Shown in pieces: positions 6,479 to 56,310 of a DNA stretch of 64,000 nucleotides; position 1 is the stretch's first letter; each line of letters begins with the position of its first letter. The DNA is from Candidatus Altiarchaeota archaeon (GTDB taxonomy: Archaea > Altiarchaeota > Altiarchaeia > IMC4 > SCGC-AAA252-I15), in contig JAZDIN010000004.1 in assembly GCA_043804895.1 (NCBI GenBank), positions 8,887 to 72,886 on the forward strand. Direction: 5' to 3'. The notes beneath the pieces were generated by a model. That model was not told where the DNA came from. It saw only the letters and a list, made by a program, of their open reading frames with translations, and made no database searches. The translations under genes and the position numbers were made by a program.

Positions 6479-6537
6479 AACAACAACTTTGAATCAAATA
6501 AAATAAATCATGTATCGCATCGATATGCTTACCTACA

Positions 6538-7221: not shown

Positions 7222-7325
7222 TCAGGTTAAGTCTATCTAATCTCCATTTCCCACTCTATGGTTATTAGATATTACACTATAAACAAGGAAGTTCAAAGTC
7301 ATGAAAAATGTGCCCCCCCCTCTAG

Positions 7326-7389
7326 GTAGCGTAGTCACATAGAGTATCCCCCACCTAAAACGAACAGATTCTTCTAGTCCCGATCGGAG
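7326..7389 (+). repeat. R-family repeat, copy R2 (degenerate 5' hairpin, intact 3' part)
   Basis: The sequence gcgtagtcacatagagtatcccccacctaaaacgaacagattcttctagtcccgatcggag aligns with R1 and R4. It ends 1 nt before the stop codon of the ABC permease. Confidence 0.7.
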
Positions 7390-8160
7390 TTATACTTTCA
7401 TCTTCTTGAAGGCGTATGTTCCTATGGCTATCATCAGCGCCGAGAATAGGGTTAACGCAGCGAAATCCAATATCATCGGGAATGCTGAGACGCCAAGCAG
7501 CGCGCCCCTGAGGCCGTCGACTGCATAAGTCGCGGGGTCCAACATGGTGAGCGGGGCCAGCCAGGGTGGCAGGTTGTCTATAGGGTAGAGGGCTCCGGAG
7601 AGGAAGAACATTGGGAATATCACGAAGCTTATCACCAGTTGGAATCCTTCGGGGCTTTCCATCTGCGACCCGATGATGAGGCCTACGCTGACCATGCCGG
7701 CGGTCGTCATGAGCATGAACGCCAACGCTATGGGGACTGACACGACATTCATATGTAGGCCGCTCATCATCCCTGTCGCGGACAGTATGAACCCGATGGT
7801 GAGGAGGATGACGGCCTGTATCACCGTCTCGGTTGAGCCGCCGACGACCTTCCCTATGAAGATTGACGTCCTGGACATGGGAGAGACGAGGACTTCCTTC
7901 AGGAAGTCCACCTTCTTGTCCCAGATTATGTACACACCGAAGAAGATGGATGAGAAAAGGACCGCCTGCACCAGCACGCCAGGGTAGATGAACGTCTGGT
8001 AGTCCATTCCGTTGACTGATACGAATGAGCCTATCCCGCCGCCGAGGAGCACGAACCAGAGCAACGGGTTTATGACCGAGGACACGGCCCTCGACTTCTC
8101 CCTCATGAACACCTTGGACTCCCTGTACCAGAGCGCGTAAATCCCCTTAAGCTGTATCAT
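7390..8160 (-). CDS. ABC-2 type transporter permease
   Basis: 256 aa with 6 TM segments, immediately downstream of the ABC ATPase on the same strand. Confidence 0.75.
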   Translation of the reverse strand: MIQLKGIYALWYRESKVFMREKSRAVSSVINPLLWFVLLGGGIGSFVSVNGMDYQTFIYPGVLVQAVLFSSIFFGVYIIWDKKVDFLKEVLVSPMSRTSIFIGKVVGGSTETVIQAVILLTIGFILSATGMMSGLHMNVVSVPIALAFMLMTTAGMVSVGLIIGSQMESPEGFQLVISFVIFPMFFLSGALYPIDNLPPWLAPLTMLDPATYAVDGLRGALLGVSAFPMILDFAALTLFSALMIAIGTYAFKKMKV

Positions 8161-11360: not shown

Positions 11361-11783
11361 ACTACCGAATCGTTCGTCCACGAATTCGCGGACGCTCCTG
11401 TCTTCGTGCGAGTCTTGGTAGAACGGCTTCTTCAGCCACTAAGCGAAATCACTTAGCGCGCCAGCTTTTGATAAGCTTTCCGCCCGCTAGGAGGGGCGAA
11501 ATCTGGGCTTGATGGACTTCCTGGAACTCCTTTTCCATATACTTAACTACGGGTTGCGGAAGCCTATAAATGTGATTTTTATACGCTAAATCTATTATCT
11601 AATTCAATGGAAGGGGGTTCCTACATCTATTGGACGGTTGAAGCAGATGAGTACTCTAGGGGGAATCCTATCCTACAGTTGTTGCTGTTGCTTAGGCTGC
11701 GAGCGTAGATTCGTCTAACATTCTACGGCTCGCATGTGATAAGATGCCAAGATTCTATTTTACACACGGGAGGTATGCGACAT

Positions 11784-11885
11784 CAACGACCAGCGGCCTT
11801 AGCCGCTGGTTTGATAAGCATGAAACCGCAATATTAGATGCATACATTAACCGCCCACCCAAAGGGGGGCGGTTTCATCGCTTAT
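11784..11885 (+). repeat. 102-nt structured element, copy X (divergent copy; its 3' end overlaps the leuA start codon)
   Basis: caacgac-cagcggc-ctta-gccgctg-gtttgataagcatgaaaccg...ccgcccacccaaaggggggcgg-tttcatcgcttat. It has the same length and two-domain fold as copies Y and Z, with compensatory changes. It is flanked by AT (11782-11783) and ends in AT (11884-11885). Confidence 0.75.
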
Positions 11886-13407
11886 GAATCAGTTCTGGTA
11901 CGACAGGAATGTCGAACCTAAGGGGAAGCCGAAGAGGATTCAGGTTTTTGACACCACGTTAAGGGATGGAGAGCAGACGCCGGGAGTCAACTTCACTGCC
12001 GAGGATAAGAAGGAGGTAGCCTCGGCCCTGTCGAAGCTGGGGGTGGACTTTATCGAAGCCGGATTCCCAATCTCAAGCGAGGGGGAGTTCAAGGCAGTTA
12101 AGGGGATAAAGGAGCTGGGACTCAAAAGCAGGATAGTCGGCCTCGCCCGCTGCGTCGGGAAGGACATGGACGCGGCGTTGGACGCTGGCGTAGACATGGT
12201 CCACATTTTCATAGGCACTTCGCCGATTCATAGGGAGTATAAGCTGAAGATGACGAGGGAGGAGATTCTGAAGAGGGCGCAGGAGAGCATACAGTATGTG
12301 AGGGACCACGGGGGTAAGGTGCACTTCAGCCCTGAGGACGCGTGCAGGACTGAGCTCGACTTCCTGAAGGAGGTGTGCGTGATGGCTGAGTCGAATAAGG
12401 TGGAACACATCAACATCCCGGACACAGTTGGCGTTATGACTCCTGCTGCGATGGGATGGCTCATCGCGGAGCTGAAGGGGGTTGTGAAGGTTCCTCTTGC
12501 AGTTCACTGCCACAACGACTTCGGGATGGCAGCAGCGAACACGATAACGGCGGTGATGTCCGGTGCGGTGATACCGCACGTCACAGTCAACGGCCTCGGG
12601 GAGAGGGCGGGCAACGCCGACCTAGAGCAGGTCGTCCTCGGGTGTAAGCTAATACACGGTGTGGAATCGAACGTGAACACGAAGAGAATATGGGAGACCT
12701 CAAGGCTCGTGGAACGGTTGAGCGGCATTAAGGTGATGCCGAACTTCCCGATAGTCGGAGGCAACGCGTTCGCCCACGAGAGCGGAGTCCACGTCCACGG
12801 AGTCCTCGCGAAGGCCGCCACCTACGAGGCCATCAAGCCTGAGATTGTGGGTGCGAAGAGGAAGCTCGTCCTCGGGAAGCTCGTCGGCAAACACGGAGTC
12901 AAGGACAAGCTGAACGCGATGGGGTTGAAGGTCACTGAAGAGCAGGCGAGGGACATAACACAGAAAGTGAAGGACCTAGGAGACAAGGGCAAGAGAGTCA
13001 CAGAGGAAGACCTGGCCGCGATAGCAGAGGACATGGTCGGAAAAGGCTCGAAGAAGGAGAGATTGGTAGAGCTGAAGGATATGACATTGCACATGGAGTA
13101 CGGAGTGAACCCGACAGCCACAGTCGCGCTCCTTGTAAAGGGCAGGGAGAAGTATGCTAGGGCCGTGGGCGTCGGCCCCGTGGATGCGACGTTGAACGCG
13201 ATAAGGGCCGCCCTCGGAGACAAGGACATACAGTTGGACGACTACCACCTCGACGCCATATCAGGAGGGTCAAATGCCCTCGCAGACGTGTCAATCAAAG
13301 TCAGCAAAAACGGGAAAAGCACCATGGCCCGGGGAGTACACGAAGACGTCGTAATGGCATCAGTACTCGCGTTCATCAACGGAGTCAACAGGATAATGAG
13401 AAAATAG
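11884..13407 (+). CDS. leuA: 2-isopropylmalate synthase / (R)-citramalate synthase family (LeuA/CimA)
   Basis: 507 aa. It has the FDTTLRDGEQTPGV catalytic N-terminus, HCHNDFGMA, NGLGERAGNA, and a C-terminal LeuA-dimer regulatory domain. The sequence alone cannot separate LeuA from CimA. Confidence 0.85.
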   Translation: MNQFWYDRNVEPKGKPKRIQVFDTTLRDGEQTPGVNFTAEDKKEVASALSKLGVDFIEAGFPISSEGEFKAVKGIKELGLKSRIVGLARCVGKDMDAALDAGVDMVHIFIGTSPIHREYKLKMTREEILKRAQESIQYVRDHGGKVHFSPEDACRTELDFLKEVCVMAESNKVEHINIPDTVGVMTPAAMGWLIAELKGVVKVPLAVHCHNDFGMAAANTITAVMSGAVIPHVTVNGLGERAGNADLEQVVLGCKLIHGVESNVNTKRIWETSRLVERLSGIKVMPNFPIVGGNAFAHESGVHVHGVLAKAATYEAIKPEIVGAKRKLVLGKLVGKHGVKDKLNAMGLKVTEEQARDITQKVKDLGDKGKRVTEEDLAAIAEDMVGKGSKKERLVELKDMTLHMEYGVNPTATVALLVKGREKYARAVGVGPVDATLNAIRAALGDKDIQLDDYHLDAISGGSNALADVSIKVSKNGKSTMARGVHEDVVMASVLAFINGVNRIMRK

Positions 13408-29249: not shown

Positions 29250-30026
29250 CTACCCTTTCTTGAAGACTTCCAACGCTTCCTTAGGCTTAGCCTTCTCGTG
29301 GACGACAGCACGCACAGCCTTTATCATCGCGACTGGATTTTCGGACTGGAAGATGTTGCGGCCCATGTCCACGCCAACCGCGCCTGCGTGCATCGCGTCG
29401 TAGGCCATCTTCAGCGCCTCCTCCTCTGGGACCTTCTTCCCTCCTGCAATGACTATTGGGACAGGGCATGTGTCGACGACCCGCTCGAACCCCTCCACAT
29501 AGTATGTCTTCACTATGCTGGCTCCAAGTTCAGCAGCCATCCTCGAGGCGAGGGCCATGTATTTCGCGTCGCGGACCATCTCCTTCCCGACCGCTGTCAC
29601 GGCGATGACGGGGATGCCATATCTCATAGCATCGTCGACGACTTTTGTGAATCCGAGTAGGGTATCGCGTTCGAAGTCAGCCCCCACCAGTATGGAGAAG
29701 GCGACTCCGGCCACGTTCAACCTAATCGCATCCTCCATGGATGCGACAACACCCTCGTGGAGTAGCTCCTTCCCGATTATGCTCGTCCCGCCTGAGACTC
29801 GAAGGACGATTGGCACATCCACATTCGGGTCGACGTAGTTCCTCAACGCACCGCGAGTTAACATCAACGTGTCAGCGTACGGGAGGAGCGGGTCAACCAT
29901 CGCCTTAAAATCATCCAACCCAGTCGTAGGCCCCATGAAGTAGCCGTGATCTACTGCCAGCATCACCGTGCGCCCGGTCTTCGGCTTAATTATCCTTGAC
30001 AAACGATTCCTCAAACCCCAGTCCAT
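29250..30026 (-). CDS. Class I aldolase of the DhnA/FbaB/ADH-synthase (AroA') family
   Basis: 258 aa with MLAVDHGYFMGP, GVAFSILVG, a Schiff-base region IVKTYY, and GVDMGRNIFQ. Confidence 0.8.
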   Translation of the reverse strand: MDWGLRNRLSRIIKPKTGRTVMLAVDHGYFMGPTTGLDDFKAMVDPLLPYADTLMLTRGALRNYVDPNVDVPIVLRVSGGTSIIGKELLHEGVVASMEDAIRLNVAGVAFSILVGADFERDTLLGFTKVVDDAMRYGIPVIAVTAVGKEMVRDAKYMALASRMAAELGASIVKTYYVEGFERVVDTCPVPIVIAGGKKVPEEEALKMAYDAMHAGAVGVDMGRNIFQSENPVAMIKAVRAVVHEKAKPKEALEVFKKG

Positions 30027-30027
30027 A

Positions 30028-30231
30028 TCAACCCTCCTTCCTCACTATAACGTATCCCCTCCCATCCAGCCAGTGGTGGAACTGCCAGGCCATGCACTTC
30101 CTGCACTCGGCCCTCGTCCTCTCATACTCGACCGAACCCTCCTTATGATGGTTCATCTTAAGCTGCACAGGACATTTAATGTCCCTACAGTACTCCCTCT
30201 TCTGATAGTCAACGTAACCTGAGATAGGCAT
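30028..30231 (-). CDS. Small Cys-rich (putative Zn-binding) protein, 67 aa. The track ORF extends to 30327 through a repeat.
   Basis: MPISGYVDYQKREYCRDIKCPVQLK...AECRKCMAWQF. The upstream 32 codons of the track ORF (MDFMLSNISEGTRLTIPPKRSKELCPQLYLSK) are encoded by repeat module M3, which recurs at 45365-45426. I therefore take the start as the ATG at 30231. Confidence 0.5.
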   Translation of the reverse strand: MPISGYVDYQKREYCRDIKCPVQLKMNHHKEGSVEYERTRAECRKCMAWQFHHWLDGRGYVIVRKEG

Positions 30232-30242
30232 TTTCGAGAGAT

Positions 30243-30304
30243 ATAGCTGAGGGCATAACTCTTTAGACCTCTTAGGGGGTATAGTGAGCCTTGTGCCCTC
30301 AGAT
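30243..30304 (-). repeat. Hairpin module M3 (62 nt), copy B
   Basis: Its reverse complement aligns with 45365-45426: atctgagggcacaaggc...ttatgccctcagctat. The terminal arms ctgagggca and tgccctcag pair. Confidence 0.75.
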
Positions 30305-30351
30305 ATATTCGAGAGCATAAAATCCAAGTCAAGAAGGTTATGCTCTCGACT
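30305..30351 (-). repeat. Hairpin module M1 (47 nt), copy B
   Basis: The reverse complement, agtcgagagcataaccttcttgacttggattttatgctctcgaatat, has a perfect 12-bp stem (tcgagagcataa / ttatgctctcga). It aligns with 45264-45310. Confidence 0.75.
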
Positions 30352-30397
30352 ATAATATAGTAAGGACGGTTACGTTAAAAATAGGCGACCACAGCCT

Positions 30398-30452
30398 GTG
30401 ACTGAGAGCCGCTGCTCTCAGACACATTCAGCAACCATTGGCTGCTGAATAT
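30398..30452 (+). repeat. Hairpin module M2 (55 nt), copy B
   Basis: gtgactgagagccgctgctctcagacacattcagcaaccattggctgctgaatat forms two hairpins joined by the conserved acacattc. It aligns with 45311-45364, with compensatory changes in both stems. Confidence 0.75.
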
Positions 30453-30554
30453 CAACGACTGCCGGCTAAAGCCGGCAGTTTGATACGCCGGAAACTACCT
30501 AGTCGAGAGGACTCCCTGAGGGTGTCCCCTGAAGGGGACAGTTTCCGAGCGTAT
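30453..30554 (+). repeat. 102-nt structured element, copy Y (intergenic, directly abutting M2)
   Basis: caacgactgccggctaaagccggcagtttgatacgccggaaact...gtcccctgaaggggacagtttccgagcgtat. The first 45 nt or so and the last 25 nt or so are near-identical to copy Z. It is preceded by TAT and ends in TAT. Confidence 0.8.
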
Positions 30555-30766
30555 AAAGGCTGCGGTATTCTCGGATTCAGCAAGTATGCACTCACGCAAC
30601 ATACTGCCGAATCCTCGAACGGGACGACCCCCATATTTTCCTCAGTCTAGGTGGTCTTAGCTTCGTTCTATTAAAGATAGCGTAAGATTGTTAGGAGATT
30701 CCAGGATATACCTATTGATGGTTTTGATTTACCCTACCAACAGAAAAGGACAGCGATCAACAGAAA

Positions 30767-31339
30767 CTATGTTCTCATTAGAAATAGGAGTAGGAGTATT
30801 GGTGAAAAAATTATTATGACAAGACAAATATCCCCCAGAACATATGCAAGGAACGATCGCCAAAAGCTTATTTGATGCAATTTACTTAGCCCAATGATTT
30901 GAAGCACTCCCATATATGCGTAGGATATGTGACTCACATAGGGTATGCTCATCAACAAAAGGTGGGGGGTCGCACCATAACTGAATGCTTTATAAGTCTC
31001 CGAAAAGTTACCACTCCCACCTAGAATTCTTGTAAAAACGTGTATCAACCCCGATGTGAAGAACGTGGCGATAAAAAATACAATATATAAAAAAGAGGTG
31101 TTAATTAACACGATTATAGTGACGTGACCACTACTGCTGAAATTTTGGACAATCACAGTTACTACAAAGTCGATCAACATAGCGATCGGCAATAAAACAA
31201 ACAAATAGCTGACGGCTTTTTTTATACCCTCCTCTGAATGAATCTCAGTCCAACAAGTGTTTGGTTCAAACAATATTGATTTAACTCTTGGAATAAAAGC
31301 CATAACAGTAGAGTGCTTTGCTTTGCCTTTAGTTTTCAC
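30767..31339 (-). CDS. Yip1-domain-like polytopic membrane protein
   Basis: 190 aa, or 178 aa from MAFIPRV at 31303. A short N-terminal segment is followed by 5 TM helices, and the pattern resembles the Yip1/DUF1282 family. AT-rich. Confidence 0.5.
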   Translation of the reverse strand: MKTKGKAKHSTVMAFIPRVKSILFEPNTCWTEIHSEEGIKKAVSYLFVLLPIAMLIDFVVTVIVQNFSSSGHVTIIVLINTSFLYIVFFIATFFTSGLIHVFTRILGGSGNFSETYKAFSYGATPHLLLMSIPYVSHISYAYMGVLQIIGLSKLHQISFWRSFLAYVLGDICLVIIIFSPILLLLFLMRT

Positions 31340-31546
31340 GATAAATACTTGTGTTCTTATATTTTAGTACCTGTGTGTTTATGAGGTGTTTCTAAATGAG
31401 TTTTCAGCACGATCTCCTGAAACTCCGCTATTCTCCCTTTGCTAGAATAGTCCGGCTACTTCTTACCGCCTTTTTCCCATCCTCCGTCACTCACTTTTTA
31501 TCCTCTTAGGATAGAGGTTAAAAACGATTATTTCATTTTCTTGAGG

Positions 31547-31594
31547 TTCCCCCACCTAAATCGAACAGAGTGTTCTAGTCCCGGTCGGGGCGAA
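31547..31594 (+). repeat. R-family repeat, copy R3 (3' part only)
   Basis: ttcccccacctaaatcgaacagagtgttctagtcccggtcggggcgaa aligns with the 3' half of R4. Confidence 0.7.
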
Positions 31595-31714
31595 GTTATC
31601 CAATTCCCTAATATATGTCGGTTATGACGTCCTTAGCTTGTACTGTCTGAGCCTCCTGAGAGATTTGAACACTTTGTACGAGGTAATGTTTTTACCCCTA
31701 CAAAATGCCTAATT

Positions 31715-31757
31715 TGTAGTCATATTTTTGTAGTCATATTTAAACTTGTAGTCATAT
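31715..31757 (+). promoter_or_regulatory. Three direct copies of tgtagtcatat immediately upstream of the Fic ORF
   Basis: Copies lie at 31715-31725, 31729-31739 and 31747-31757. The 9-mer gtagtcata is the 3' arm of the R-family hairpin, and its complement tatgactac overlaps the Fic stop at 32705-32713. Confidence 0.6.
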
Positions 31758-31758
31758 A

Positions 31759-32709
31759 GTGTTATTGATGCACATTGAGGTTCAGGAGCGCGGCGGGAAG
31801 AAGTTCATTTATGTGGCTCATTCCTTCCGTCATGGGGGTAAAGTTAGGAAGTTGAGGAAATATCTAGGAGTCAACCTTAGTGGAAAGGAGATATCTTCTT
31901 TGAGGCCTGCTGCTGAGAAGGCGCTGATGTGGCGGGCTGAGGCGAGTAAGAGCATCCGCGACCCCCTGAAGACTGTTTTGTCTCCTCAGGAGATGGCGTC
32001 TATCAAGTCCTTGATTGGAAAGCACGACATTAAGATAAGCCATCTGTCTGAAAAACAGTGGGTTAGATTCACCGAACTCTTCGCATATGATACTAACGCC
32101 ATAGAAGGGTCAACAGTGGATTTGGCCGAAGTCAAAGGCATATTGGAGAGAGATAAGTGGCCTGACAAGGCGAAGGATGAGATTGCTGAGACATATGGGG
32201 TGTCTGACGCAGTCAAGTTGATTAGGAGGACTAAAGAACACCTGTCAATCGAGTTGATAATGGAACTACACAAAATTGTTTTCAAGAACTCTAAAGGGTT
32301 CGCGGGTAGGCTGCGCCCACCTGGAGTAGAAGTAGTGGTCACAAACCGTTTTGGAGAGATCATCCATAGAGGCGCACCCCAAAAACATGTCTTGAAACTT
32401 CTAAAGGAACTCGTGGAATGGTACGCAGAAAACAAGAAACGATACCACCCTATTGTCCTTGCAGCTGTCGTCCACAACCACTTCGAAAACATCCACCCAT
32501 TTGAGGATGGAAACGGGAGGGTTGGAAGACTCCTATTGAACAACATACTACTTAAGCACGACCTCCCCCCAGTTAACATTGAATTAAAAAACAGAAAAGG
32601 GTACTACGCTTCTTTACAAGCGTACGAAAAGGCGGGTAATCTCAGACCAAGTATAGAGTTGGTATTAACGTCCTATGACAGACTCAAGAAAACCCTGAGG
32701 AGTATATGA
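31759..32709 (+). CDS. Fic-domain protein (AMPylase / Fido family)
   Basis: Carries the canonical Fic motif HPFEDGNGRVGRLL. The ATG at 31768 (MHIEVQERGG) is the more likely start; the track starts at the GTG at 31759. Confidence 0.85.
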   Translation: MLLMHIEVQERGGKKFIYVAHSFRHGGKVRKLRKYLGVNLSGKEISSLRPAAEKALMWRAEASKSIRDPLKTVLSPQEMASIKSLIGKHDIKISHLSEKQWVRFTELFAYDTNAIEGSTVDLAEVKGILERDKWPDKAKDEIAETYGVSDAVKLIRRTKEHLSIELIMELHKIVFKNSKGFAGRLRPPGVEVVVTNRFGEIIHRGAPQKHVLKLLKELVEWYAENKKRYHPIVLAAVVHNHFENIHPFEDGNGRVGRLLLNNILLKHDLPPVNIELKNRKGYYASLQAYEKAGNLRPSIELVLTSYDRLKKTLRSI

Positions 32710-32789
32710 CTACATGCCCCAGAGGCGTAGTCATACAGAGTTTCCCCCACCTAAACCGAACAAACTGTTCGAGTCCCGATCGGGGCGAC
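32708..32789 (+). repeat. R-family repeat, copy R4 (best-preserved copy)
   Basis: tatgactac (32705-32713) and gtagtcata (32727-32735) form the hairpin. Then come tttcccccacctaaa, the hairpin cgaaca-aac-tgttcg, and gagtcccgatcggggcgac followed by a T6 run. Confidence 0.8.
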
Positions 32790-32930
32790 TTTTTTCAAGG
32801 GGGTACTAGTTCTGTTATAATTTATTTTTAGCTTATTTGGTTAGGGTTCATTTGTTAATGTGAGGGGGTTTGAACCTTAAAGTTGTAGTCTTGATGTAAT
32901 TACCGCTTGCCAGCAGTGCAAACACGCCTG

Positions 32931-34520
32931 TTAGGAGTGGATGATGTTGGCTGCCAAAACCCCGAAGCCCACCATTGTGCAGATTATTATTGTTAAGACG
33001 GTTAAAGTCACCAGCGCAATTCCCAGTATTATGATTTTTACCTTGTTTATTCTTTTTTTAGGGGGTAAAAGGTAGTAGGTACCGATGACAGTTGTCAGAA
33101 ATATCGATACACCGAAGACGATCGTCGCAACCACAAAAACCAATCCCCCGAATATCATGGTGTTAGTGTTTGGACCGTTGGGGACCTCAACGATCGCAAA
33201 TGTGCTCAAATGAGGAGCAAGCGCAGCATAACGGCATATGTTGCTGTCACAACTAATCTTCCAACTAGGAAGTTTTTCCCAGGATTTTTTATCCTCATTA
33301 TATATTGCAACAGCAACCCCTTTTGCATTAGCAGCGTCTGAGGCTTGCTTACCTAAAAGAAGTTTAGTAAATGAATCCCAGCTATAACCTTGAGGCTTAT
33401 ATTTGGCAGCATCAGATTTTGTTTCTAAGTATTTAAATAAATCTTGCTGGGATTTAAGCTGCTCTGCAGTAACCTTAGACTCAGATTCAGAGTAGGCATA
33501 ACTATGTCTTGTCGTTGAGAATTCTATAAGTGCCTGCGAATAATCTTCATAAGGCTGATCATTATTCTTAGTGTTCACAACAAGCATCTTATCAACCTGC
33601 TCGCCATTTTTACTAGGATAATCAGGAGCTCTGTTTGCGCCCCTATAATTCTGCCAATCTTTTCCATAAATAACAGAAACATCCATGGTAGCATCATCAG
33701 TAGGTTGTTTTAAAGTAGTGGTAATCCGGGTGACTGTTGCACCCTCAGGCAATGTGGCGCTTACATCGTCCCCTGATTTTCTATTTTTTATATTATATTC
33801 TACATTAATCTTTGGCAAAGATTCTCCAATACCTTGCTGTTTTAAAGTGTCTGCTGAAACTGAATTTCCATCTTCATCTGAAATCTTTCCAGCAGGCAAT
33901 TGAACTGCTTGCCCCACCCAGTCATCTATTGCAGAGCCAATAATTTGCTGAGCCTGAGCTATTTGTTGTTCCTGTTCTTCCTGAGATGCAATTCTCTTTA
34001 TGCACCGGCTATTTTCCCAGGAGCAGATATAGAATGTGGCGCAACTGTTGAGGCATTTCTGCTTTGCATCATCTTGTTGCTGCGATTGCGTCGTGGTGGT
34101 TCTGGGTTGGGTTGTTGTGGTCTTAAACAAGGTAGTGCTAGGCGGTTGCGGCTGTGTTGAGGTGGTGGTCCTGATCCTTTTTATGCACTGGTGATTCTCC
34201 CAGGAACAGACATAGAATGATGCGCAGCTGTTGATGCATTTAGTCCGATCATAATTTTCATCATAGGTGCAGCCCCCGGTTATGCTGTACCTGGCCCCAT
34301 ATTCTGCCGCACCAGCCCGACACTGCGCAACACCGTTAGCAACCAATTGTTGACATGAAGCTTGGTCAGGGAAATATTTCGGCCCCCAGCATTCCTTGTA
34401 ACCCTGTATAAAACAACAGCCTTCGAATTTCCACGGCCCCTCTCCAGAAACGGCAGAAAAACCTCCACTCATTAAAAGTCCAAACACAACTATGATGGAA
34501 AAAAGTTTTTTCTGTTTCAT
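32931..34520 (-). CDS. Secreted / membrane-anchored Cys-rich surface protein
   Basis: Signal peptide MKQKKLFSIIVVFGLLMSGGFSAVSG. The module C.NSCA.FY.CSWEN..CIKRI is duplicated, separated by T/Q-rich linkers (TTTSTQPQPPSTT, TTTTQPRTTTTQ). There are two C-terminal TM helices. Confidence 0.7.
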   Translation of the reverse strand: MKQKKLFSIIVVFGLLMSGGFSAVSGEGPWKFEGCCFIQGYKECWGPKYFPDQASCQQLVANGVAQCRAGAAEYGARYSITGGCTYDENYDRTKCINSCASFYVCSWENHQCIKRIRTTTSTQPQPPSTTLFKTTTTQPRTTTTQSQQQDDAKQKCLNSCATFYICSWENSRCIKRIASQEEQEQQIAQAQQIIGSAIDDWVGQAVQLPAGKISDEDGNSVSADTLKQQGIGESLPKINVEYNIKNRKSGDDVSATLPEGATVTRITTTLKQPTDDATMDVSVIYGKDWQNYRGANRAPDYPSKNGEQVDKMLVVNTKNNDQPYEDYSQALIEFSTTRHSYAYSESESKVTAEQLKSQQDLFKYLETKSDAAKYKPQGYSWDSFTKLLLGKQASDAANAKGVAVAIYNEDKKSWEKLPSWKISCDSNICRYAALAPHLSTFAIVEVPNGPNTNTMIFGGLVFVVATIVFGVSIFLTTVIGTYYLLPPKKRINKVKIIILGIALVTLTVLTIIICTMVGFGVLAANIIHS

Positions 34521-34609
34521 ATCTGCTTTCTAGCCACAATTACCTATTAAACTACACTATTAAAAACAATCTTAATCTCATGAAACTGTGAAACCACATT
34601 ATGACATAT

Positions 34610-34714
34610 GACTACAAAAACCTAAGAGGTAGTCATACAAACTCAAATGTCACCAGTTTGCGTCTATCGTTTTCTTTGGGGATTCGAACAAACAATTCGA
34701 GTCCCAATCGGGGC
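34610..34714 (+). repeat. R-family repeat, copy R5 (hairpin and 3' core conserved, middle diverged or expanded)
   Basis: tatgactac (34607-34615) and gtagtcata (34629-34637), then cgaacaaacaattcgagtcccaatcggggc ending 1 nt before the stop of the class II aldolase gene. Confidence 0.7.
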
Positions 34715-36555: not shown

Positions 36556-38895
36556 TCAGACGACTGAAGGCCCGTTTTGCTTTTGCAGTTCCCTGAAGAA
36601 GGAGTCTATCTTCCCCAAGTCAACGCCATCAGAGAAGTACTTATCAAACAACGGCTCAACCTGGCCTTTGGCGCCGTGATAGTCCGAATCGCCCCCATGT
36701 TGCCAGGAGTCATATCCAGCTGATTTGAAACGGTCATGGTGAAGCATTCTGTCTACTGTATACCCCTCCTGCCACTTAGGGATGCCATACTCCTGGATTT
36801 TTGGTTCAAGCTGCAGGCGCATGGTATCCCGGGCGAGCATATCCCTCAACTCCTCGGGGCTCTTATGTTCCCCGGCAGAACTGAGTTCCCTGAAGAATGC
36901 ATCTATCTTTCCCAGGTCGACTCCGTCAGCGAAGTATTTATCAAACAGCGGGTCTACCTGGGCTTTGGCGCCGTGATAATCAAAACCTTCCGGACCCTGC
37001 CAGCGGGGTTTACCTGTTTTCAGGCCCGTATAATCTGTGGACTGGAACTTCTCGACTATCATCTTGTCGACTACATACTCCTTTTGCCACTGAGGGATTT
37101 TATAGTCCTGTATGAATTTTTCAAGTTGCAAATGCATGGTTTCGTGGACTATCGTGTTCTTCAACTCCTTTGGAGTTTTCAACTCCCCATTAGAATTGTA
37201 GAGGTTATCAAGTATCTGGCGAGTCTTCAGGTTATAACTACCGCCCACCCCATAGTCAGTTAGAACGATTTCAGAGGGGAGTACAACCTTTTCCCCGAAT
37301 ATACCGGCTAAATCCTTGAAGTATTTGCCCAGGGTCGCCCAATATTCCTGCGTTATCTTTGATTCCTCAGCTAAGAACTTGTTAGAGTCATGCTCTTTCT
37401 TTATTGCAGCCTCTATTTCAGGCGTTGTCGACTGCTTACTAACTCCGGAAGGCAGCTTAAGGCCTAAACCTTTGCCATATACTTCTTCTTTCCCGAATAC
37501 TTCGGCCAATTCGTCGATGTATTCGCCCAAATTCTGCCCATACTGCTGCATCATCTTTGATTCAGCATCCAAGAATCTGTTGGGAGTATACTCGCCTTCA
37601 AGAGGCAGGTTGGGAGGTGGGTCCCAGAAGTATCTGTTCTGGGCGTAGAGCATGTTCTTTACAACCCCTATTTGACTTTCTAAATCTGATTTAAAATTAA
37701 GCCCAACTGCAGCTTCGTTCTTTCCCTGGGGATTGTTGATGCCCGCAAACTCGGCGAAGTTTTTGTCCTTCCTGTGCTCGAACAGCTCTACGATGCCGAT
37801 AAGACCTTTATTGCCGTCTACGTCATACGGTCTGCAAAGCGTCCCGACCAGTTGGTCGACACCTATCCCCTTCTCCTTCGCGTTGTCAACCACGGACTCC
37901 CACATCTTAAGGCCTAGGAAGTATAGGGGGTGATCCTCACGATAGTTTAACTGCGGTTCCAAACCCAGTTTCCGTATGATTGTCTCGTCCATGTATGATG
38001 CGAAGCCCTCATGGGTGAGGCTCGAGTCGGAGAGGCCGTTGGGGTGGTCCTTGTTTAGCCGGACTATTGTATGTTCGTCCTCCAGTATTATCCTCTTTTC
38101 ACTCCGGAGTTCACTGTAGATTGAACGGACCCGCCTATCATCAAGTTTGACTTCAGACCCTTCAAAGTTCTTCGGTACGTTTTTTTTATTTTCCGCCTCT
38201 ATTGCGTTATTCCGGATGTGGCTTCCCTCATGGATAAACCCGTCAAGGACGCCAACCAATGGCTGTTCCTCATTAGGCCTGTAGAAGACAGCCTCCCCGT
38301 CTGCAGCTACACCGTGTTTCGCTGCGAATTCTGCTGTCCGGTCACGCGTACCCCGGATACTTTGGGCTATGTCGGTCAGGCCGTATTTTTCATTCCCAAG
38401 GAGTTCGGCCATGTCTGTTAGCCGCTGGAGGAAGGTGCTGTTGATTACCTCTCCTCCACTATGGCTTGCTTTTTCGCCTTCCGCATACCATAGTCTTCTA
38501 AGATTATCCTTGTCTTTGAGCATTCTCTCTAGGGTCCCTTTGTATGATTCTCCTTCCTTCATTTCCCGTATGAGTCTAACATGGAATAGAGAAACGTGGA
38601 AATCCTCTTTTGAAGCCGTGTACATGCCGATATCCAAGCCGCTTTCATCCTTGAGGAGGCGATTTGCTATGGCAGGGATGACCTCCAATGCCTGCTCACG
38701 TGGTAGACAGAGTATATTCTTAACCAATTCTGGTAATTTGTCCGTAGGAGTCGTATCTGGAGAAGTAACTCGCTGTATGGCATCAGCAATCTTCAATTTC
38801 CTGCTCCTCTCATCCAGTTCATCGATTAGGGGGTTTCTAGCTGTTATATTGGAATCACCCTCTTTATGGGGGTTTTCTATTACTTTCGGGCTCAT
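36556..38895 (-). CDS. Large hypothetical protein with two HExxH motifs (putative Zn-metallopeptidase-like) and a C-terminal tandem duplication
   Basis: 779 aa, with FIHEGSHI near aa 230 and IVHETMHL near aa 588. The last ~190 aa are two ~95-aa repeats (PKELKNTIVHETMHLQLEKFIQDYKIPQWQ...DYHGAKAQVDPLFDKYFADGVDLGKIDAFFREL versus PEELRDMLARDTMRLQLEPKIQEYGIPKWQ...DYHGAKGQVEPLFDKYFSDGVDLGKIDSFFREL). The duplication is also visible in the DNA (36560-36880 versus 36880-37200). Confidence 0.7.
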   Translation of the reverse strand: MSPKVIENPHKEGDSNITARNPLIDELDERSRKLKIADAIQRVTSPDTTPTDKLPELVKNILCLPREQALEVIPAIANRLLKDESGLDIGMYTASKEDFHVSLFHVRLIREMKEGESYKGTLERMLKDKDNLRRLWYAEGEKASHSGGEVINSTFLQRLTDMAELLGNEKYGLTDIAQSIRGTRDRTAEFAAKHGVAADGEAVFYRPNEEQPLVGVLDGFIHEGSHIRNNAIEAENKKNVPKNFEGSEVKLDDRRVRSIYSELRSEKRIILEDEHTIVRLNKDHPNGLSDSSLTHEGFASYMDETIIRKLGLEPQLNYREDHPLYFLGLKMWESVVDNAKEKGIGVDQLVGTLCRPYDVDGNKGLIGIVELFEHRKDKNFAEFAGINNPQGKNEAAVGLNFKSDLESQIGVVKNMLYAQNRYFWDPPPNLPLEGEYTPNRFLDAESKMMQQYGQNLGEYIDELAEVFGKEEVYGKGLGLKLPSGVSKQSTTPEIEAAIKKEHDSNKFLAEESKITQEYWATLGKYFKDLAGIFGEKVVLPSEIVLTDYGVGGSYNLKTRQILDNLYNSNGELKTPKELKNTIVHETMHLQLEKFIQDYKIPQWQKEYVVDKMIVEKFQSTDYTGLKTGKPRWQGPEGFDYHGAKAQVDPLFDKYFADGVDLGKIDAFFRELSSAGEHKSPEELRDMLARDTMRLQLEPKIQEYGIPKWQEGYTVDRMLHHDRFKSAGYDSWQHGGDSDYHGAKGQVEPLFDKYFSDGVDLGKIDSFFRELQKQNGPSVV

Positions 38896-45234: not shown

Positions 45235-45263
45235 GCTATCCTATAGGGGGTGCAGGGTATTAT

Positions 45264-45310
45264 ATTCGAGAGCATAACCTTTTTGACTTGGATTTTATAC
45301 TCCCGAATAT
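45264..45310 (+). repeat. Hairpin module M1 (47 nt), copy A
   Basis: attcgagagcataacctttttgacttggattttatactcccgaatat. Its stem has 2 mismatches relative to copy B. It is preceded by tattat. Confidence 0.75.
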
Positions 45311-45364
45311 GTGGCTGAGACATATGTCTCAGACACATTCGACAGCCAATAGGCTGTCGCATAT
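45311..45364 (+). repeat. Hairpin module M2 (54 nt), copy A, lying between M1 and M3
   Basis: gtggctgagacatatgtctcagacacattcgacagccaataggctgtcgcatat, with hairpins ctgagac/gtctcag and cgacagcc/ggctgtcg. In the other locus M1 and M3 are directly adjacent. Confidence 0.8.
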
Positions 45365-45426
45365 ATCTGAGGGCACAAGGCTTATGATACCCCCTAGGAA
45401 TTCTAAAGAATTATGCCCTCAGCTAT
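45365..45426 (+). repeat. Hairpin module M3 (62 nt), copy A
   Basis: atctgagggcacaaggcttatgataccccctaggaattctaaagaattatgccctcagctat, with terminal arms that pair. Confidence 0.75.
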
Positions 45427-45440
45427 AAATCCGGCCGACT

Positions 45441-46040
45441 TCACAGCGCGGAGGCCGCAATGGTCAGTATCCCCTTCTTTATGAACTCGACCGCTATCGC
45501 GGCGAGGAGTAGACCCATTATCCTTGATGATATTGCCATCCCCTTCTCGCCTAGGAGAATTCGCAGCGGCTCTGACATCTTCAGGATAAGCCAGACCACG
45601 ACAATGGCGAATATTGCGGCAATGAGCGAGGGTATGTAACCGTATTCGGCCACCATTATCATCGTAGTGGTTAGGACCCCAGGCCCGGTTATCAGCGGCA
45701 CTCCGATAATCATGATGGACGCGTCAACGTCAACCTCACGCTTCTTGTCGTAGAGGTTGCCGAGTATGAAGTTAATTGAGATGACCAGGAGGACTATGCC
45801 GCCTGCCACTTGGAAGCTTGAGATGCTTACCCCAAGGATTGAGAGGAGCACAGGGCCTATCACTAGGAACACGAGCATGGTGATTCCCGCAATCTCGGTC
45901 GCATGATTTATGGCATCAGCCTTCTCCTTATCTGTGAATTTCTTGGATATGCCAAGGAAGTAGGCCACGCTTGTGAAAGGGTTCATGATAACCAGGAACG
46001 ATATGAAGATGTGGCCTAGTTCGTGAGACATGAAATCCAT
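45441..46040 (-). CDS. MarC-family (UPF0056) integral membrane protein
   Basis: 199 aa with 6 TM segments and an N-terminal FLVIMNPF motif typical of MarC. Confidence 0.8.
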   Translation of the reverse strand: MDFMSHELGHIFISFLVIMNPFTSVAYFLGISKKFTDKEKADAINHATEIAGITMLVFLVIGPVLLSILGVSISSFQVAGGIVLLVISINFILGNLYDKKREVDVDASIMIIGVPLITGPGVLTTTMIMVAEYGYIPSLIAAIFAIVVVWLILKMSEPLRILLGEKGMAISSRIMGLLLAAIAVEFIKKGILTIAASAL

Positions 46041-46094
46041 AGCCTAATTACATGTCAGAACGCCTTATTAAGCTGTCTTTGAGAGTATTAGGCG

Positions 46095-48812: not shown

Positions 48813-49406
48813 GTGATGTTGATGATACTTGCTGCGTTAGGTTTGATGGGCGTTTTGCTTTTAGGCGTTGTCGGATTAGTGGTGGTTTTCGGCGTAGCTG
48901 TTGTGATTATCTACAACGGCCTCGTCGGCCTCAGGAACCAGTGTGAGAACGCTTGGAGCCAGATTGACGTTCAGTTGAAGAGGAGGAACGACCTGATACC
49001 GAACCTAATAGAGACTGTCAAAGGCTACGCGAAGCATGAGAGGGAGACGTTCGAGCTCGTCACCCAGGCGAGAGCCTCCATGGCGAACGCGAAGACAGTG
49101 AAGGAGAAGTCCGCTGCCAACAACATCCTAACCGGGGCGCTGAAAACCCTGTTCGCCGTCGCTGAGAACTATCCGCAACTGAAGGCTAACGAGAACTTCA
49201 TCCAGTTGCAGGAGGAGCTGACGACCACTGAGAACAAGATATCGTATGCGAGGCAGTTCTACAACGACTCTGTGATGCGATACGACACCAAGAGGCAGAC
49301 GTTCCCGAGCAACATCGTAGCCGGGATGTTCCGCTTCGTTGACAAAGACTACTTCGAAACCGCAGAAGCAGAGAAGGCCGTTCCGAAGGTCGACTTCAGC
49401 AAGTAA
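48813..49406 (+). CDS. lemA: LemA-family protein
   Basis: An N-terminal TM segment, then [32 protein letters not shown]...[13 protein letters not shown]...EN.ISYAR..YN. Confidence 0.85.
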
Positions 49407-50323
49407 TGGAAAAGATAAGCTTCTACGACCAGATTGAGAGGAACAAGAGGTACTCCTGGGCGCTGGTCATAGCGGTGCTAGCCATGTTGGCCGTGATGTC
49501 GGTGGTGTTCTCGCTAGTATTCGCGAGAGCCTACGGCATAGGGGGCATGTTCCTGTTCCTCATGTTCTCCACCCTCTTCAACATAGGGTACATACTCGTC
49601 ACCTACTACAAGTCCGCTGAAATCGCCCTAATGTCCGTGAACGCGCAGCCAGCGGAGGGGGAGAAGTACAAGCAACTGAACAACATCGTAGACGAGATGA
49701 CCATCGCGGGGGGAGTCCCGAAGCCGAAGGTCTACGTGATGCCCTCACCTGACATAAACGCGTTCGCAACAGGAAGGGACCCCCAGCACAGCGTAGTGTG
49801 CGTGACAGAAGGGTGCCTTACAAAGCTTAACAGGCAGGAGCTCCAAAGCGTCATAGCCCATGAGATGACCCACGTAAGAAACTACGACATAAGGTTCGTG
49901 ACCCTCGTCGCAGTCATGGTCGGCCTGGTGTCGATAATGGCCCACCTCTTCCTCAGGAGCATGTGGTACTCCGGAGGCGGCGGCAGGAGGGACAGAGGAG
50001 GCGGACTCATGATAGTCCTCATGCTCGCTGGGGTGATTCTATCGATTGTGGCGCCGCTTATTGTGAAGCTCGTGCAACTGGCCATCTCAAGGAAGAGGGA
50101 GTACATGGCCGACGCCGGAGCAGTCGAACTGACCAGATACCCGGCAGGGATGATAGGAGCACTGGAGAAGATAAGAGACAATTACAAGGCCGGATTGAAG
50201 ACGAAGGTCGACGAGACCGTCGCCCCCATGTTCCTCGCCGACCCCACCAAAGGCAGATTCTGGGACATGTTAGAAACCCACCCACCAATAGAAGACAGGA
50301 TAAAAGTGCTGAAAGCGATGTAG
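49406..50323 (+). CDS. M48-family (HtpX-like) zinc metallopeptidase, translationally coupled to lemA
   Basis: HEMTHV (HExxH) and a downstream REYMAD glutamate. There are 4 TM segments, and the start codon overlaps the lemA stop. Confidence 0.8.
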   Translation: MEKISFYDQIERNKRYSWALVIAVLAMLAVMSVVFSLVFARAYGIGGMFLFLMFSTLFNIGYILVTYYKSAEIALMSVNAQPAEGEKYKQLNNIVDEMTIAGGVPKPKVYVMPSPDINAFATGRDPQHSVVCVTEGCLTKLNRQELQSVIAHEMTHVRNYDIRFVTLVAVMVGLVSIMAHLFLRSMWYSGGGGRRDRGGGLMIVLMLAGVILSIVAPLIVKLVQLAISRKREYMADAGAVELTRYPAGMIGALEKIRDNYKAGLKTKVDETVAPMFLADPTKGRFWDMLETHPPIEDRIKVLKAM

Positions 50324-50363: not shown

Positions 50364-50732
50364 ATGTTCTACGGGAGGAATATACCAGCAGCGTTGATGA
50401 GAAGTGGGTTAGAGGATAGGCTGCTTAGGGTGTGCGAGGAGGAGGACTTGTCCTACCTGGCATTGTTCGGCTCCTATGCTAGGGGGAAGGCGAAACCAAG
50501 GAGCGATTTGGACATAGCGATAGAGTATGAGAAAGGCGCGGATAAGACACTCTTTGACTTGATTTCATTGGAGGAGAGGTTGCGGAGGCCTTTCAGGAGG
50601 AAAGTCGACCTTGGGATTCACGATACCATAAGCCCGCACGTGATAGATAACGTCAGGAAGGACATGAGGGTCATATATCAACGACTGCCGGCTAAAGCCG
50701 GCAGTTTGATACGCCGGAAACTGCCTAGTTGA
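50364..50732 (+). CDS. Minimal nucleotidyltransferase (MNT antitoxin); its C-terminus is extended by insertion of element Z
   Basis: LFGSYARGKAKPRSDLDIAIE matches the GS...D.D NTase motif. The last 17 aa, QRLPAKAGSLIRRKLPS, are encoded by the 102-nt element and recur in the spurious ORF 30438..30650. Confidence 0.75.
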   Translation: MFYGRNIPAALMRSGLEDRLLRVCEEEDLSYLALFGSYARGKAKPRSDLDIAIEYEKGADKTLFDLISLEERLRRPFRRKVDLGIHDTISPHVIDNVRKDMRVIYQRLPAKAGSLIRRKLPS

Positions 50733-50780
50733 GTGGAGTACATGCAACTGTCCCTTGGAAGGGACAGTTTCCGAGCGTAT
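50679..50780 (+). repeat. 102-nt structured element, copy Z (inserted at the MNT/HEPN junction)
   Basis: caacgactgccggctaaagccggcagtttgatacgccggaaact...gtcccttggaagggacagtttccgagcgtat. It is flanked by TAT (50676-50678) and ends in TAT (50778-50780). Removing it restores an overlapping gene pair. Confidence 0.85.
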
Positions 50781-51111
50781 GAGAAACGATAAGGCCTACA
50801 TCAAACACATATATGATACGATAATTGATTTGGAGGGGTTCACAAAGGACGCGACCCTAACGGATTTCCTTAAAGACACGGAGAAACAATACGCTGTGAT
50901 ACGGGCCTTTGAGGTCATAGGCGAGGCCTCCAAGAACATAAGCGCTGAATTCAAAAAGAAGCATCCTGGTGTGCCGTGGACGAAGATGTCTGCGATGAGA
51001 GATAATTTGATACACGGATACTTCGGAGTCAACCTTGAGTTGGTCTGGAGCACAGTGAAGGTGAACATACCAGAGATAAAGAACAGGATAAAAGCGCTGA
51101 AGGCGAGGTGA
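50779..51111 (+). CDS. HEPN-domain protein (DUF86 type), toxin partner of the MNT
   Basis: MRNDKAYIKHIYDTI... with the R(x)4-6H motif RDNLIHGY. The track ORF starts 24 nt upstream, inside the element. Confidence 0.75.
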   Translation: MRNDKAYIKHIYDTIIDLEGFTKDATLTDFLKDTEKQYAVIRAFEVIGEASKNISAEFKKKHPGVPWTKMSAMRDNLIHGYFGVNLELVWSTVKVNIPEIKNRIKALKAR

Positions 51112-55459: not shown

Positions 55460-55838
55460 ATACGTCATAGACTCATACGCCTGGATAGAGTACTTCAGGG
55501 GAAGCAAGGCCGGAGGGGCATCAAGGGAATACATCGAAAGCGGAGGCGCTATGACACCCACAATCGTGTTGGCGGAACTGTCAGACAAATACCGCAGGGA
55601 AAAAATAGACTCCTTAGATGAAGACCTGTTTTTCATAAAATCCAAGTCGCAGATACTCTCCTTAGATGAGGAAACAGCGATACTGGCCGGAGGACTGAAC
55701 AGTTCAATGAAGAAGGAAGTCAACGGCTGGGGCATGGCCGACTCGATAATCCTGGCCACGACCAGAAAACACAAAGCCAAAGTAGTGACCGGAGACGAAC
55801 ACTTCAGAAAACAGACGGAAGCCGTCATGATAGAGTAG
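55449..55838 (+). CDS. vapC: PIN-domain ribonuclease toxin VapC
   Basis: VIDSYAWIEY (first acidic residue), ...AELSDKY..., DSIILATTRKHKAKVVTGDEHF (third and fourth acidic residues). Confidence 0.8.
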   Translation: MSSRYVIDSYAWIEYFRGSKAGGASREYIESGGAMTPTIVLAELSDKYRREKIDSLDEDLFFIKSKSQILSLDEETAILAGGLNSSMKKEVNGWGMADSIILATTRKHKAKVVTGDEHFRKQTEAVMIE

Positions 55839-55850
55839 GAGGATACGCTC

Positions 55851-56160
55851 TACCTGTCTCGGCCGCGCCCCTCGGGGAGGGGGTCAGGAAGATGTGGCCG
55901 AGACAATGGTCTCGGACACACGCCAGAGAGGCAAGGCCAGTTAGAGGCATTTATACAGGGTAATGCATTAGTGCCGTCGAAGACGGCACAATCCGTTTCG
56001 GGAGGGTCAGGAAGAACTTGAAACTGGGGATGTGGCCTAGCGCTTTGCGCTAGGACATCAGACAGGAGCGATAATATCGCTCCTGCTGAGGGCGGTAGCC
56101 CTCCGCGGTTAAGGTGTGAGGGGGGGTTCGTGCGTTTTAACATATTTGTCCGCCCCACCG
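55851..56160. ncRNA. Candidate structured non-coding RNA(s), class unassigned (SRP RNA, RNase P RNA or novel); strand undetermined
   Basis: About 300 nt, GC-rich, between vapC and lhr. At least 7 local hairpins: ccgagac/gtctcgg, gcatt/aatgc, gtgccgtc/gacggcac, cctagcg/cgctagg, caggagcgat/atcgctcctg, gaggg/ccctc and cccctc/gagggg. A tandem internal motif occurs. The only ORF (55850..56158, minus) has a low-complexity P/G/R/L-rich translation. Confidence 0.35.
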
Positions 56161-56310
56161 GTGTTCCCTCATCGAGTGACTCGGGCTGCCGGTCGCCAGA
56201 CTTGTTTAGTCATTGTTGACGGCAGAACCATCACCCCTCAAATAGTTATGTGTTTTACCCTATTTTAATTTGTCGGTTTACTTGGGGTAACTGAGCGAGC
56301 GGGTGTTTAT

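Follow-up and report, generated by a model that had tools for sequence, protein, structure and literature searches.

Modular hairpin repeats in intergenic DNA of Altiarchaeota, with a 54-nt module present in one copy of a doublet and missing from another

How does a 54-nt structured module come to lie between two hairpins that are joined directly to one another elsewhere in the same genome? The question is raised by a 64,000-nt stretch of DNA from Candidatus Altiarchaeota archaeon (assembly GCA_043804895.1, contig JAZDIN010000004.1), here called the window, whose first letter is position 1 of all coordinates and whose 64 kb supply the whole of the within-genome evidence. The 206-nt gap at 45235-45440, between the stop of the MarC gene (45441-46040, minus strand) and the start of the next gene, is filled by three hairpin modules, M1, M2 and M3, which occupy 45258-45427; the GTG start at 45234 was confirmed by an ortholog that is 66% identical and shares the N-terminus. 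Near 30 kb, M1 and M3 are found again, this time contiguous. A preliminary description of this DNA had reported both arrangements, and its coordinates, M1-M2-M3 order and junction sequences, as well as the filling of the whole gap between MarC and the gene after it, were all reproduced on re-reading. The best reading is that these hairpins form a family new for Altiarchaeota and, in kind, a variant of the well-known small palindromic repeats of prokaryotes. Specifically, we give a probability of roughly 0.55 to a modular palindromic repeat system that populates some Altiarchaeota intergenic regions and is of the kind represented by repetitive extragenic palindromic (REP) sequences with their bacterial interspersed mosaic elements (BIMEs) and REP doublets forming hairpins (REPINs), or by transposable elements of the miniature inverted-repeat type (MITEs).

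The difference between the two loci is exact. On the minus strand, M1b runs directly into M3b (30357-30242). When 45245-45440 (plus) is aligned pairwise with 30228-30370 (minus), similarity extends from TATTATA to CAGCTATA and is interrupted by a single clean gap of 54 columns, which corresponds to M2a (45311-45364) and confirms the reported presence of M2 at one locus and the direct M1-M3 junction at the other. The 31-nt core of M1 has two matches in the window, against 0.00 expected by chance. Judged from this alignment, the two loci are copies, approximately 90% identical, of one M1-M3 doublet, and they differ by the precise gain or loss of M2 in its central spacer.

Table 1 Positions and main features of the hairpin modules in the window.
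Feature	Position	Strand	Remarks
M1a	45258..45310	+	hairpin with foot TATAT, 12-bp stem TCGAGAGCATAA/TTATACTCCCGA, 17-nt loop CCTTTTTGACTTGGATT and 3' ATAT
M2a	45311..45364	+	54-nt two-hairpin module, missing from the 30-kb copy; ends in AT
M3a	45363..45427	+	hairpin with stem CTGAGGGCA(C)AA/TT(A)TGCCCTCAG and 32-nt interior
M1b	30305..30357	-	92% identical to M1a; perfect 12-bp stem, G.A foot on the minus strand
M3b	30242..30306	-	89% identical to M3a; joined to M1b via ATATAT ('empty' junction)
M2b	30396..30452	+	75% identical to M2a; 5' flank CCT; 3' GAATAT overlaps the start of E102a
M2 hairpin 1 only	55892..55921	+	ATGTG-G-CCGAGAC-AATG-GTCTCGG-A-CACAC; change CTGAGAC to CCGAGAC compensated
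Weak M2-like two-hairpin unit	56030..56104	+	GTGG-CCTAGCGC-TTT-GCGCTAGG-ACAT, then CAGGAGCGAT-AAT-ATCGCTCCTG
E102a	30449..30555	+	102-107 nt; begins within the terminal ATAT of M2b
E102b	50675..50781	+	between MNT (50364-50732) and HepT (50779-51111); ends at the HepT ATG
E102c	11780..11886	+	divergent copy (~66%); ends at the ATG of a LeuA-like gene (11884)

M1, M3 and the first hairpin of M2 are variants of one layout, foot-G-YYGAG...CTCRR-A-foot, with a G.A mismatch. M2a hairpin 1 (45309-45338) reads (AT)GTG-G-CTGAGAC-ATAT-GTCTCAG-A-CAC(AT), and M3a reads TATA-G-CTGAGGGCATAA...TTGTGCCCTCAG-A-TATA on the minus strand, with the same G.A foot; in the M1a stem, two positions are A.C on the plus strand and G.U on the minus strand. 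A scan for this layout with a foot of at least 3 bp returned five matches in the window (M3b, M2a hairpin 1, the copy at 55893, M3a and M1b), against 0.01 in shuffled sequences. The 1x1 G.A mismatch above the foot is present in these five and in a further M2 copy from a second organism (L009, described below); M2b has A.A. On the strand that carries G.A, the M1 arm TATAG-TCGAGAGCATAA and the M3 arm TATAG-CTGAGGGCATAA are identical at 14 of 17 positions, and the outer arms share TATAG-YYGAGRGCATAA in inverted orientation. Because the two related hairpins face each other, M1-M3 is an inverted doublet, with loops of 17 nt (M1) and 32 nt (M3) and a joining ATATAT, and it is exactly in this central spacer that M2a lies. 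These features are best explained by a basic unit consisting of a hairpin whose stem starts with YYGAG and carries a G.A mismatch just above a 3-5-bp foot, either AT-rich or GTG/CAC, M2 apparently being a 54-nt module that combines one such hairpin with a second conserved in structure only. Readings of the modules as C/D boxes, K-turns, tRNA fragments or ribozymes were rejected upon inspection of the sequences, as the required motifs are absent.

The covariance model of M2 matches four places in the window, namely the two full copies, the isolated hairpin 1 at 55892-55921 and the unit at 56030-56090, the last of which directly abuts a short hairpin with an M3-like stem, CTGAGGGC-GGTA-GCCCTC. 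Across the three full copies (M2a, M2b and L009), the consensus is (AT)GTG-G-[CTGAGA..]-loop-[..TCTCAG]-A-CAC(AT) for hairpin 1 and ATTC-[7 bp]-loop-[7 bp]-G(A/C)AT-AT for hairpin 2, which in M2a (45337-45362) reads ATTC-GACAGCC-AATA-GGCTGTC-GCAT. Hairpin 2 is conserved as a structure: the three copies show four pairs with both partners changed and pairing in 95% of cells, against only 23-48% when the registers are slid by 1-3 columns. Of the compensatory changes proposed earlier between M2 copies, those in hairpin 2 stand, as the four double changes, whereas the difference in hairpin 1 amounts to one extra base pair. Similarly, the motif ACACATTC, previously taken for a linker, is conserved and invariant in the copies but is not free, being base-paired in both halves: its CAC(AT) closes hairpin 1 against (AT)GTG, and its ATTC finds a partner in G(A/C)AT, which lengthens hairpin 2 to a helix of 11 bp. 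All five M2 copies have GTGG or GTGA in front of hairpin 1, the GTG pairing with the downstream CAC, and the motif GTGR-stem-loop-stem-ACA occurs four times in the window, always on the plus strand, against 0.28 times in shuffles.

M2 is conserved across two organisms. A metagenome scan for its core, CTGAGA-N(4-10)-TCTCAGACACATTC, returned five loci (L006-L010), one of which, L009 (SDBU01012199.1, 9.4 kb, 46% GC), holds a full M2 as TAT/GTGGCTGAGATTTTCGTCTCAGACACATTCACAAGACAAAGTCTTGTGAATAT/ and was identified as Altiarchaeota by PGK and neighbouring genes. The match extends beyond what the pattern forced, with TATGTGG upstream, a fully compensated 11-bp hairpin 2 and a 3' GAATAT, and it scores 80 bits with the M2 covariance model; no other DNA similarity was found between L009 and the window. 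These matches point to a hairpin repeat family common to the window genome and at least one other Altiarchaeota lineage. As for the remaining loci of the scan, L008, near a contig end, is a possible M2 homolog, and L006 and L007, which have no GTGG foot, and L010, inside a eukaryotic LINE-like endonuclease open reading frame (ORF), were treated as chance matches.

The surroundings of the L009 copy also bear on the origin of the clusters, which are lineage-specific. M2 lies there in a hairpin cluster of ~215 nt (2090-2342), in which it and two further small motifs are nested in a 15-bp inverted repeat, CCAACAGGAGAATAT...ATATTCTCCTGTTGG. In L009, 253 nt separate the PGK stop from a conserved small membrane ORF, versus 23-36 nt in five relatives (L015/L016, L012, L017 and L011, with PGK identities of 79, 79, 76, 74 and 69%), and the promoter-proximal motif GATTATAGGTAAG is retained at this site. 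Such a difference at an orthologous site implies that whole hairpin clusters are gained DNA, and to judge by these distances the PGK site of L009 is a second, cleaner filled-versus-empty case. The position of E102b inside the MNT-HepT pair (Table 1) and that of the 45-kb cluster, at the place of TerC in relatives, also speak for gain.

The family is modular. M2 is found in three unrelated contexts and in two orientations: between M1a and M3a, beside a copy of a 102-nt element (E102a), and in L009 without M1 or M3. M2b had been treated as a separate locus, which it is not: it belongs to the 30-kb cluster, 40 nt from M1b, where it is inverted relative to M1b and M3b and fused to the 102-nt element. 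The three contexts support M2 as a module that appears independent of M1 and M3; of the independently mobile module proposed in the preliminary description, the independence holds, and the mobility itself we only infer.

E102 is conserved in its helices as well. Its three copies contain 8 doubly compensated pairs, with 97.8% of cells paired, a level reached in 0 of 500 shuffles, and the divergent E102c retains every helix. The structure of E102a, which lies antisense between two minus-strand genes, comprises a hairpin closed by ATCAA/TTGAT and then a long helix, TACGC-GGAAACT.../...AGTTTCC-GCGTA, with an inner hairpin. Two of the three copies end exactly at a start codon, the A of which is the last base of the outer helix, and E102b, inside the MNT-HepT toxin-antitoxin pair, encodes the last ~19 amino acids of MNT. 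A weak E102-like two-hairpin unit (19.8 bits) was observed at 2223-2288 of L009, and several hairpins of the L009 cluster end in GTGG-AT on the mRNA strand.

Structured clusters of the window lie at 11361-11883, 30228-30766, 45235-45440 and 55829-56310 (-0.34 to -0.41 kcal/mol per nt); E102b adds a structured stretch at 50660-50800, and the remaining gaps fold ordinarily. The 206-nt gap at 45 kb folds far more stably than shuffled sequence (z = -5.8 for the minus and -5.3 for the plus strand). The modules are extragenic throughout, with the sole exception of E102b, which overlaps the 3' end of MNT. Co-directional genes flank five of the six clusters, and neither M1-M3 nor E102 keeps to one orientation with respect to its neighbouring genes. 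In total, the window contains two M1-M3 doublets, two full and two partial copies of M2, and three copies of E102.

Under the reading we prefer, the modules would belong to the REP/BIME-REPIN or MITE kind of non-autonomous DNA element and would multiply as DNA, either through an enzyme encoded elsewhere that recognises hairpins or through template switching at hairpins. They would land preferentially in (GA)ATAT spacers beside existing hairpins, such that clusters would grow by accretion, mostly between co-directional genes, and once inserted they would be transcribed as stable RNA hairpins inside operon transcripts. Several observations weigh against this proposal. Only two to four copies of each module are present within the 64-kb window, a Pfam scan of its ~58 ORFs revealed no transposase, integrase or HUH/Y1 gene, and ~70 kb from five other Altiarchaeota genomes contain none of the modules and few long gaps. 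The module boundaries yield no unambiguous target duplication. The asymmetry between G.U and A.C on the two strands favours the mRNA strand by 5:2, which is not significant, and with numbers this small it was dropped as a guide to the functional strand. Furthermore, M2a and M2b, at 75% identity, are as distant from one another as from the L009 copy (~74%), and hairpin 1 and ACACATTC are invariant among the M2 copies, a combination that argues for long-term selection on the motif. An old motif kept by purifying selection accounts for this pattern better than a selfish element of recent activity would.

Two opposite directions can be envisioned for the M2 difference itself. If M1-M2-M3 (or M2-M3) was the ancestral arrangement, the 30-kb copy would have lost M2 by slippage or recombination between the flanking ATAT microhomologies, and a microhomology-mediated deletion would exploit just such a repeat as the 4-nt ATAT at both ends of M2a. 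We regard such a loss as unlikely, albeit well short of negligible. M2 stands without M1 or M3 in L009, and beside E102, in the other orientation, at 30 kb, so that it is not an obligatory part of an M1-M2-M3 unit, and whole clusters have demonstrably been gained at the L009 PGK site. Conversely, no near-identical source copy of M2a exists in the 64 kb, and at the third locus, 56030-56104, an M2-like unit is again followed directly by the hairpin with the CTGAGGGC stem, with no TAT between them, which hints that M2-M3 adjacency may recur. With n=2 doublets, the cases are too few for parsimony to give a direction.

A different explanation holds that the modules are not mobile DNA but functional motifs of the host, that is, RNA or DNA signals that recur because selection acts at many loci. 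They could be sites that stabilise intercistronic mRNA or at which it is processed, signals for termination or insulation, or palindromes bound by a conserved protein, and the M2 difference would be ordinary indel turnover. Since long-term selection on M2 can be argued, host function is a serious rival or complementary explanation, although as the sole account it seems to us doubtful. It would explain why two organisms share hairpin 1 and ACACATTC without change while hairpin 2 is free to co-vary, and it fits the 8 compensated pairs of E102, the placement of two E102 copies exactly at a start codon and the prevalence of co-directional flanking genes; the strong folding z-scores are consistent with it. 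It is less readily reconciled with the occurrence of M1-M3 and E102 in both orientations relative to the flanking genes, with the disruption of the end of the MNT gene by E102b, with the absence of the clusters from orthologous sites in close relatives and with the lack of an Rfam family for the modules even at E <= 5. Structured cis-regulatory RNAs and intercistronic stabilisers, such as the REP in the malE-malF spacer of Escherichia coli, are also stable hairpins between genes of one transcription unit, and the covariation that preserves the helices and the E102 ends at start codons resemble them; conversely, the modules stand in either orientation to their neighbours, have no Rfam match and recur beside unrelated genes. 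The two explanations are not exclusive, bacterial REPs being both mobile and functional.

Among known systems, REP, BIME and REPIN sequences are a classic feature of bacterial genomes that comes with a dedicated domesticated transposase, and to our knowledge no archaeal equivalent has been described. The likeness begins with the units themselves, short imperfect palindromes in extragenic space, of which M2 hairpin 1 measures 30 nt including its foot. By contrast, M1 at 53 nt and M3 at 65 nt exceed the classical REP length of 20-40 nt; their stems, of 12 bp plus foot, are much longer, and their loops, of 17 and 32 nt, are large. The feet of the modules are AT-rich rather than GC-rich. The conserved purine mismatch in the stem, here G.A, has a counterpart in the E. 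coli REP stem, where the mismatch is required for binding by RAYT, the REP-associated tyrosine transposase (PMC3479197). The GTGG of M2 hairpin 1 recalls the conserved 5'-foot tetranucleotide of REPs, whose GTAG is degenerate to GTRG or GTGG in some families (PMC3733652); unlike in REPs, the GTG of this GTGG is paired with CAC instead of being single-stranded, and M1 and M3 have ATAG at that place. As in the REP/BIME and REPIN systems, units occur in alternating orientation, in mosaic clusters and with short linker motifs, and they lie inside operons, with co-directional genes on either side. Identity is ~90% for the doublet copies versus 75% for the M2 copies, in line with REPINs, in which inverted doublets are better conserved than singlets (PMC3116915). 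REPs typically number tens to hundreds per genome, often as inverted doublets. No transposase, of the PF01797 type or any other, is found among the window ORFs, in contrast with REP-RAYT systems, where the repeats flank a single-copy RAYT (HUH-Y1) gene, and reports of RAYT-class Y1 proteins are confined to bacteria, archaea having only the IS200-type TnpA (PMC6006769). A bolder proposal would be a true archaeal counterpart of REP/BIME-REPIN, in which G.A-foot hairpins, M2 and E102 were spread by an unrecognised hairpin-specific enzyme acting on single-stranded DNA and persisted across genera through co-option as operon RNA hairpins. Such an enzyme might be an HUH-Y1 protein that falls into no known RAYT class, or might be unrelated to these proteins; stated in full, this scenario is speculative and we consider it improbable.

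The second family of comparisons concerns transposable elements. The ends of palindrome-associated transposable elements (PATEs) and of IS200/IS605 elements carry subterminal hairpins, and insertion takes place beside a specific 4-5-nt sequence without duplication. An insertion of this kind would fit the arrangement ATAT/M2...ATAT/, M2 having one hairpin at each end, and an insertion of M2 beside a preferred ATAT is possible. In IS608-type elements, however, the left and right hairpins are alike, whereas the two hairpins of M2 are unrelated in sequence, and the window contains no TnpA or TnpB. Archaeal MITEs (Sulfolobus SM1-SM4 and Halobacterium; listed in PMC10969869) and the PATEs of Haloquadratum are, as here, small non-coding intergenic repeats with presence/absence differences. 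The modules differ in that no parent insertion sequence (IS) is known for them: M2 has no terminal inverted repeats, and the outer arms of the M1-M3 doublet, 17 nt long and inverted, likewise have no known parent. Moreover, the M2 copies are old, diverged and compensated rather than near-identical as after a transposition burst.

The preliminary description had taken the TAT on both sides of M2 as what a 3-bp target duplication or a TAT-specific target would give. At M2a the repeat is real but is ATAT, 4 nt instead of 3, and at M2b the 5' flank reads gcCT/GTGA. The 5' flanks of the five M2 copies are ATAT, GTAT, GCCT, AGAT and GGAT, with AT in four and TAT in two, and the same rule breaks down in E102, where E102a and E102b have (A/T)AT but E102c has GAC. 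Every M2 and E102 copy does have TAT at its 3' end, but there it belongs to conserved helices. In the predicted folds, pairs of the ATA/TAT type beyond the 1x1 mismatch close each hairpin, the 5' AT of M2 can pair with the AT after CAC, and its 3' GAAT is the partner of ATTC in hairpin 2. Because ATAT is its own reverse complement, a direct repeat of it is indistinguishable from the hairpin's own foot, and in the non-palindromic cases, which provide the test, the rule does not hold. A 3-bp target duplication is thus unsupported; the flanking TAT is no proof that M2 jumped in. Cut-and-paste insertion by a DDE transposase with such a TAT duplication, as in a classical MITE, is very unlikely: it would account for the TAT/ATAT that brackets M2a and the L009 copy, for the TAT/TATA that flanks the M1-M3 doublet at both loci and for an IS982-like IS with TATAT on both sides beside the M2-like element of L008, but not for the CCT of M2b or the GAC of E102c, nor for M2 ends (ATGTGG and GAATAT) that are not complementary and form no terminal inverted repeats of their own, and the self-complementary ATAT forms hairpin feet in the predicted folds, the 5' AT and 3' GAAT of M2 pair with bases inside it and the window has no DDE transposase. 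More generally, AT-palindromic 'duplications' beside hairpins are no evidence of target-site duplication. The IS of L008 (29-1008) encodes a DDE transposase, has 24-nt terminal inverted repeats and interrupts a gene, 85 nt from the M2-like two-hairpin element (1094-1146); its TATAT flanks suggest that AT-rich spacers of this kind can serve as IS targets.

No homologous repeat outside Altiarchaeota came up in the searches. The M1 loop (23 nt) had 0 matches in the metagenome scan and the E102 pattern had 0 in the viral scan; phage and plasmid collections held nothing relevant to the modules, and six-frame translations of the repeats found nothing among 5.8 billion proteins. The one match of the M3 stem in the genome-contig scan, an unrelated perfect palindrome beside a tRNA in a metagenome-assembled genome of Paceibacterota, was rejected as chance. 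No Rfam family matched at gathering thresholds and only two weak, irrelevant ones did at E <= 5; the window itself contains no tRNA genes and no Rfam families. Our literature search found no description of such repeats in Altiarchaeota.

The gene order around the 45-kb cluster differs from that of relatives. In L002/L003/L004/L005 the order is MTS / CitMHS-MarC-TerC-172 aa, versus MarC-[M3-M2-M1]-172 aa in the window, which has neither CitMHS nor TerC at 45235-46094 and no remnants of them detectable by tblastn; the hairpin cluster sits where TerC would be. A comparison of the orthologous site at 45 kb was attempted and given up, the intergenic DNA being unalignable because the relatives are distant (65-78% amino acid identity, at most 78% for MarC) and have TerC at that position. 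Approximately 6 kb of extra genes, including the MNT-HepT pair, separate the M48 peptidase (49406-50323) from Lhr (56311) in the window. A conserved non-coding block upstream of the Lhr helicase gene (window ~56115-56235, plus; L002 1506-1680, minus; L003 3826-4003, minus) contains 100%-identical runs (TGCGTTTTAACAT, TGTCCGCCCC, CGGTCGC and ATTGTTGACGGC), the proteins being only ~65% identical between genomes; RNAalifold predicts a long-range helix in it, it has no Rfam match, and it is a candidate leader or non-coding RNA.

A second modular repeat family, unrelated to M1-M3, is present at 5436-5529, 7304-7398, 31530-31599, 32700-32794 and 34602-34714, and also at 31700-31758. It comprises an inverted repeat of the 10-mer GTAGTCATAT (ATATGACTAC...GTAGTCATA) followed by the module CCCCCACCTAAA-CGAACA..TGTTCG-AGTCCCGATCGGGGCGA; the first module is missing from some copies, and one copy has an insert between the two. 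Gaps with this family fold much better on the minus strand (-45 vs -28 and -22 kcal/mol). Three direct copies of TTGTAGTCATAT, resembling binding-site iterons, lie just upstream of the Fic gene (31759). The family and the Fic gene coincide with stretches of lower G+C, 30001-34000 and 4001-8000 (0.42-0.48 vs ~0.52 elsewhere), which may be acquired islands; the 30-kb hairpin cluster lies at the left edge of the former. Two long ORFs on the minus strand have no Pfam match, namely a giant one of 2621 aa (13412-21277; none at E <= 1e-4) and one of 779 aa (36556-38895), which probably encodes a repeat-domain protein, given its internal direct repeats at 36587-37003 and 37282-37581 (120 nt at 297-nt spacing with 79% identity, and 102 nt at 198-nt spacing with 71% identity).

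The covariance models of M2 and E102 would serve for the annotation of Altiarchaeota genomes. If the reading of the modules as a palindromic repeat system is true, a hairpin family of two lineages would extend REP-type biology to an uncultivated archaeal phylum and would offer a handle on the growth of intergenic DNA in otherwise compact genomes. It would also explain local losses of synteny, such as the cluster in place of TerC and the position of E102 inside a toxin-antitoxin pair.

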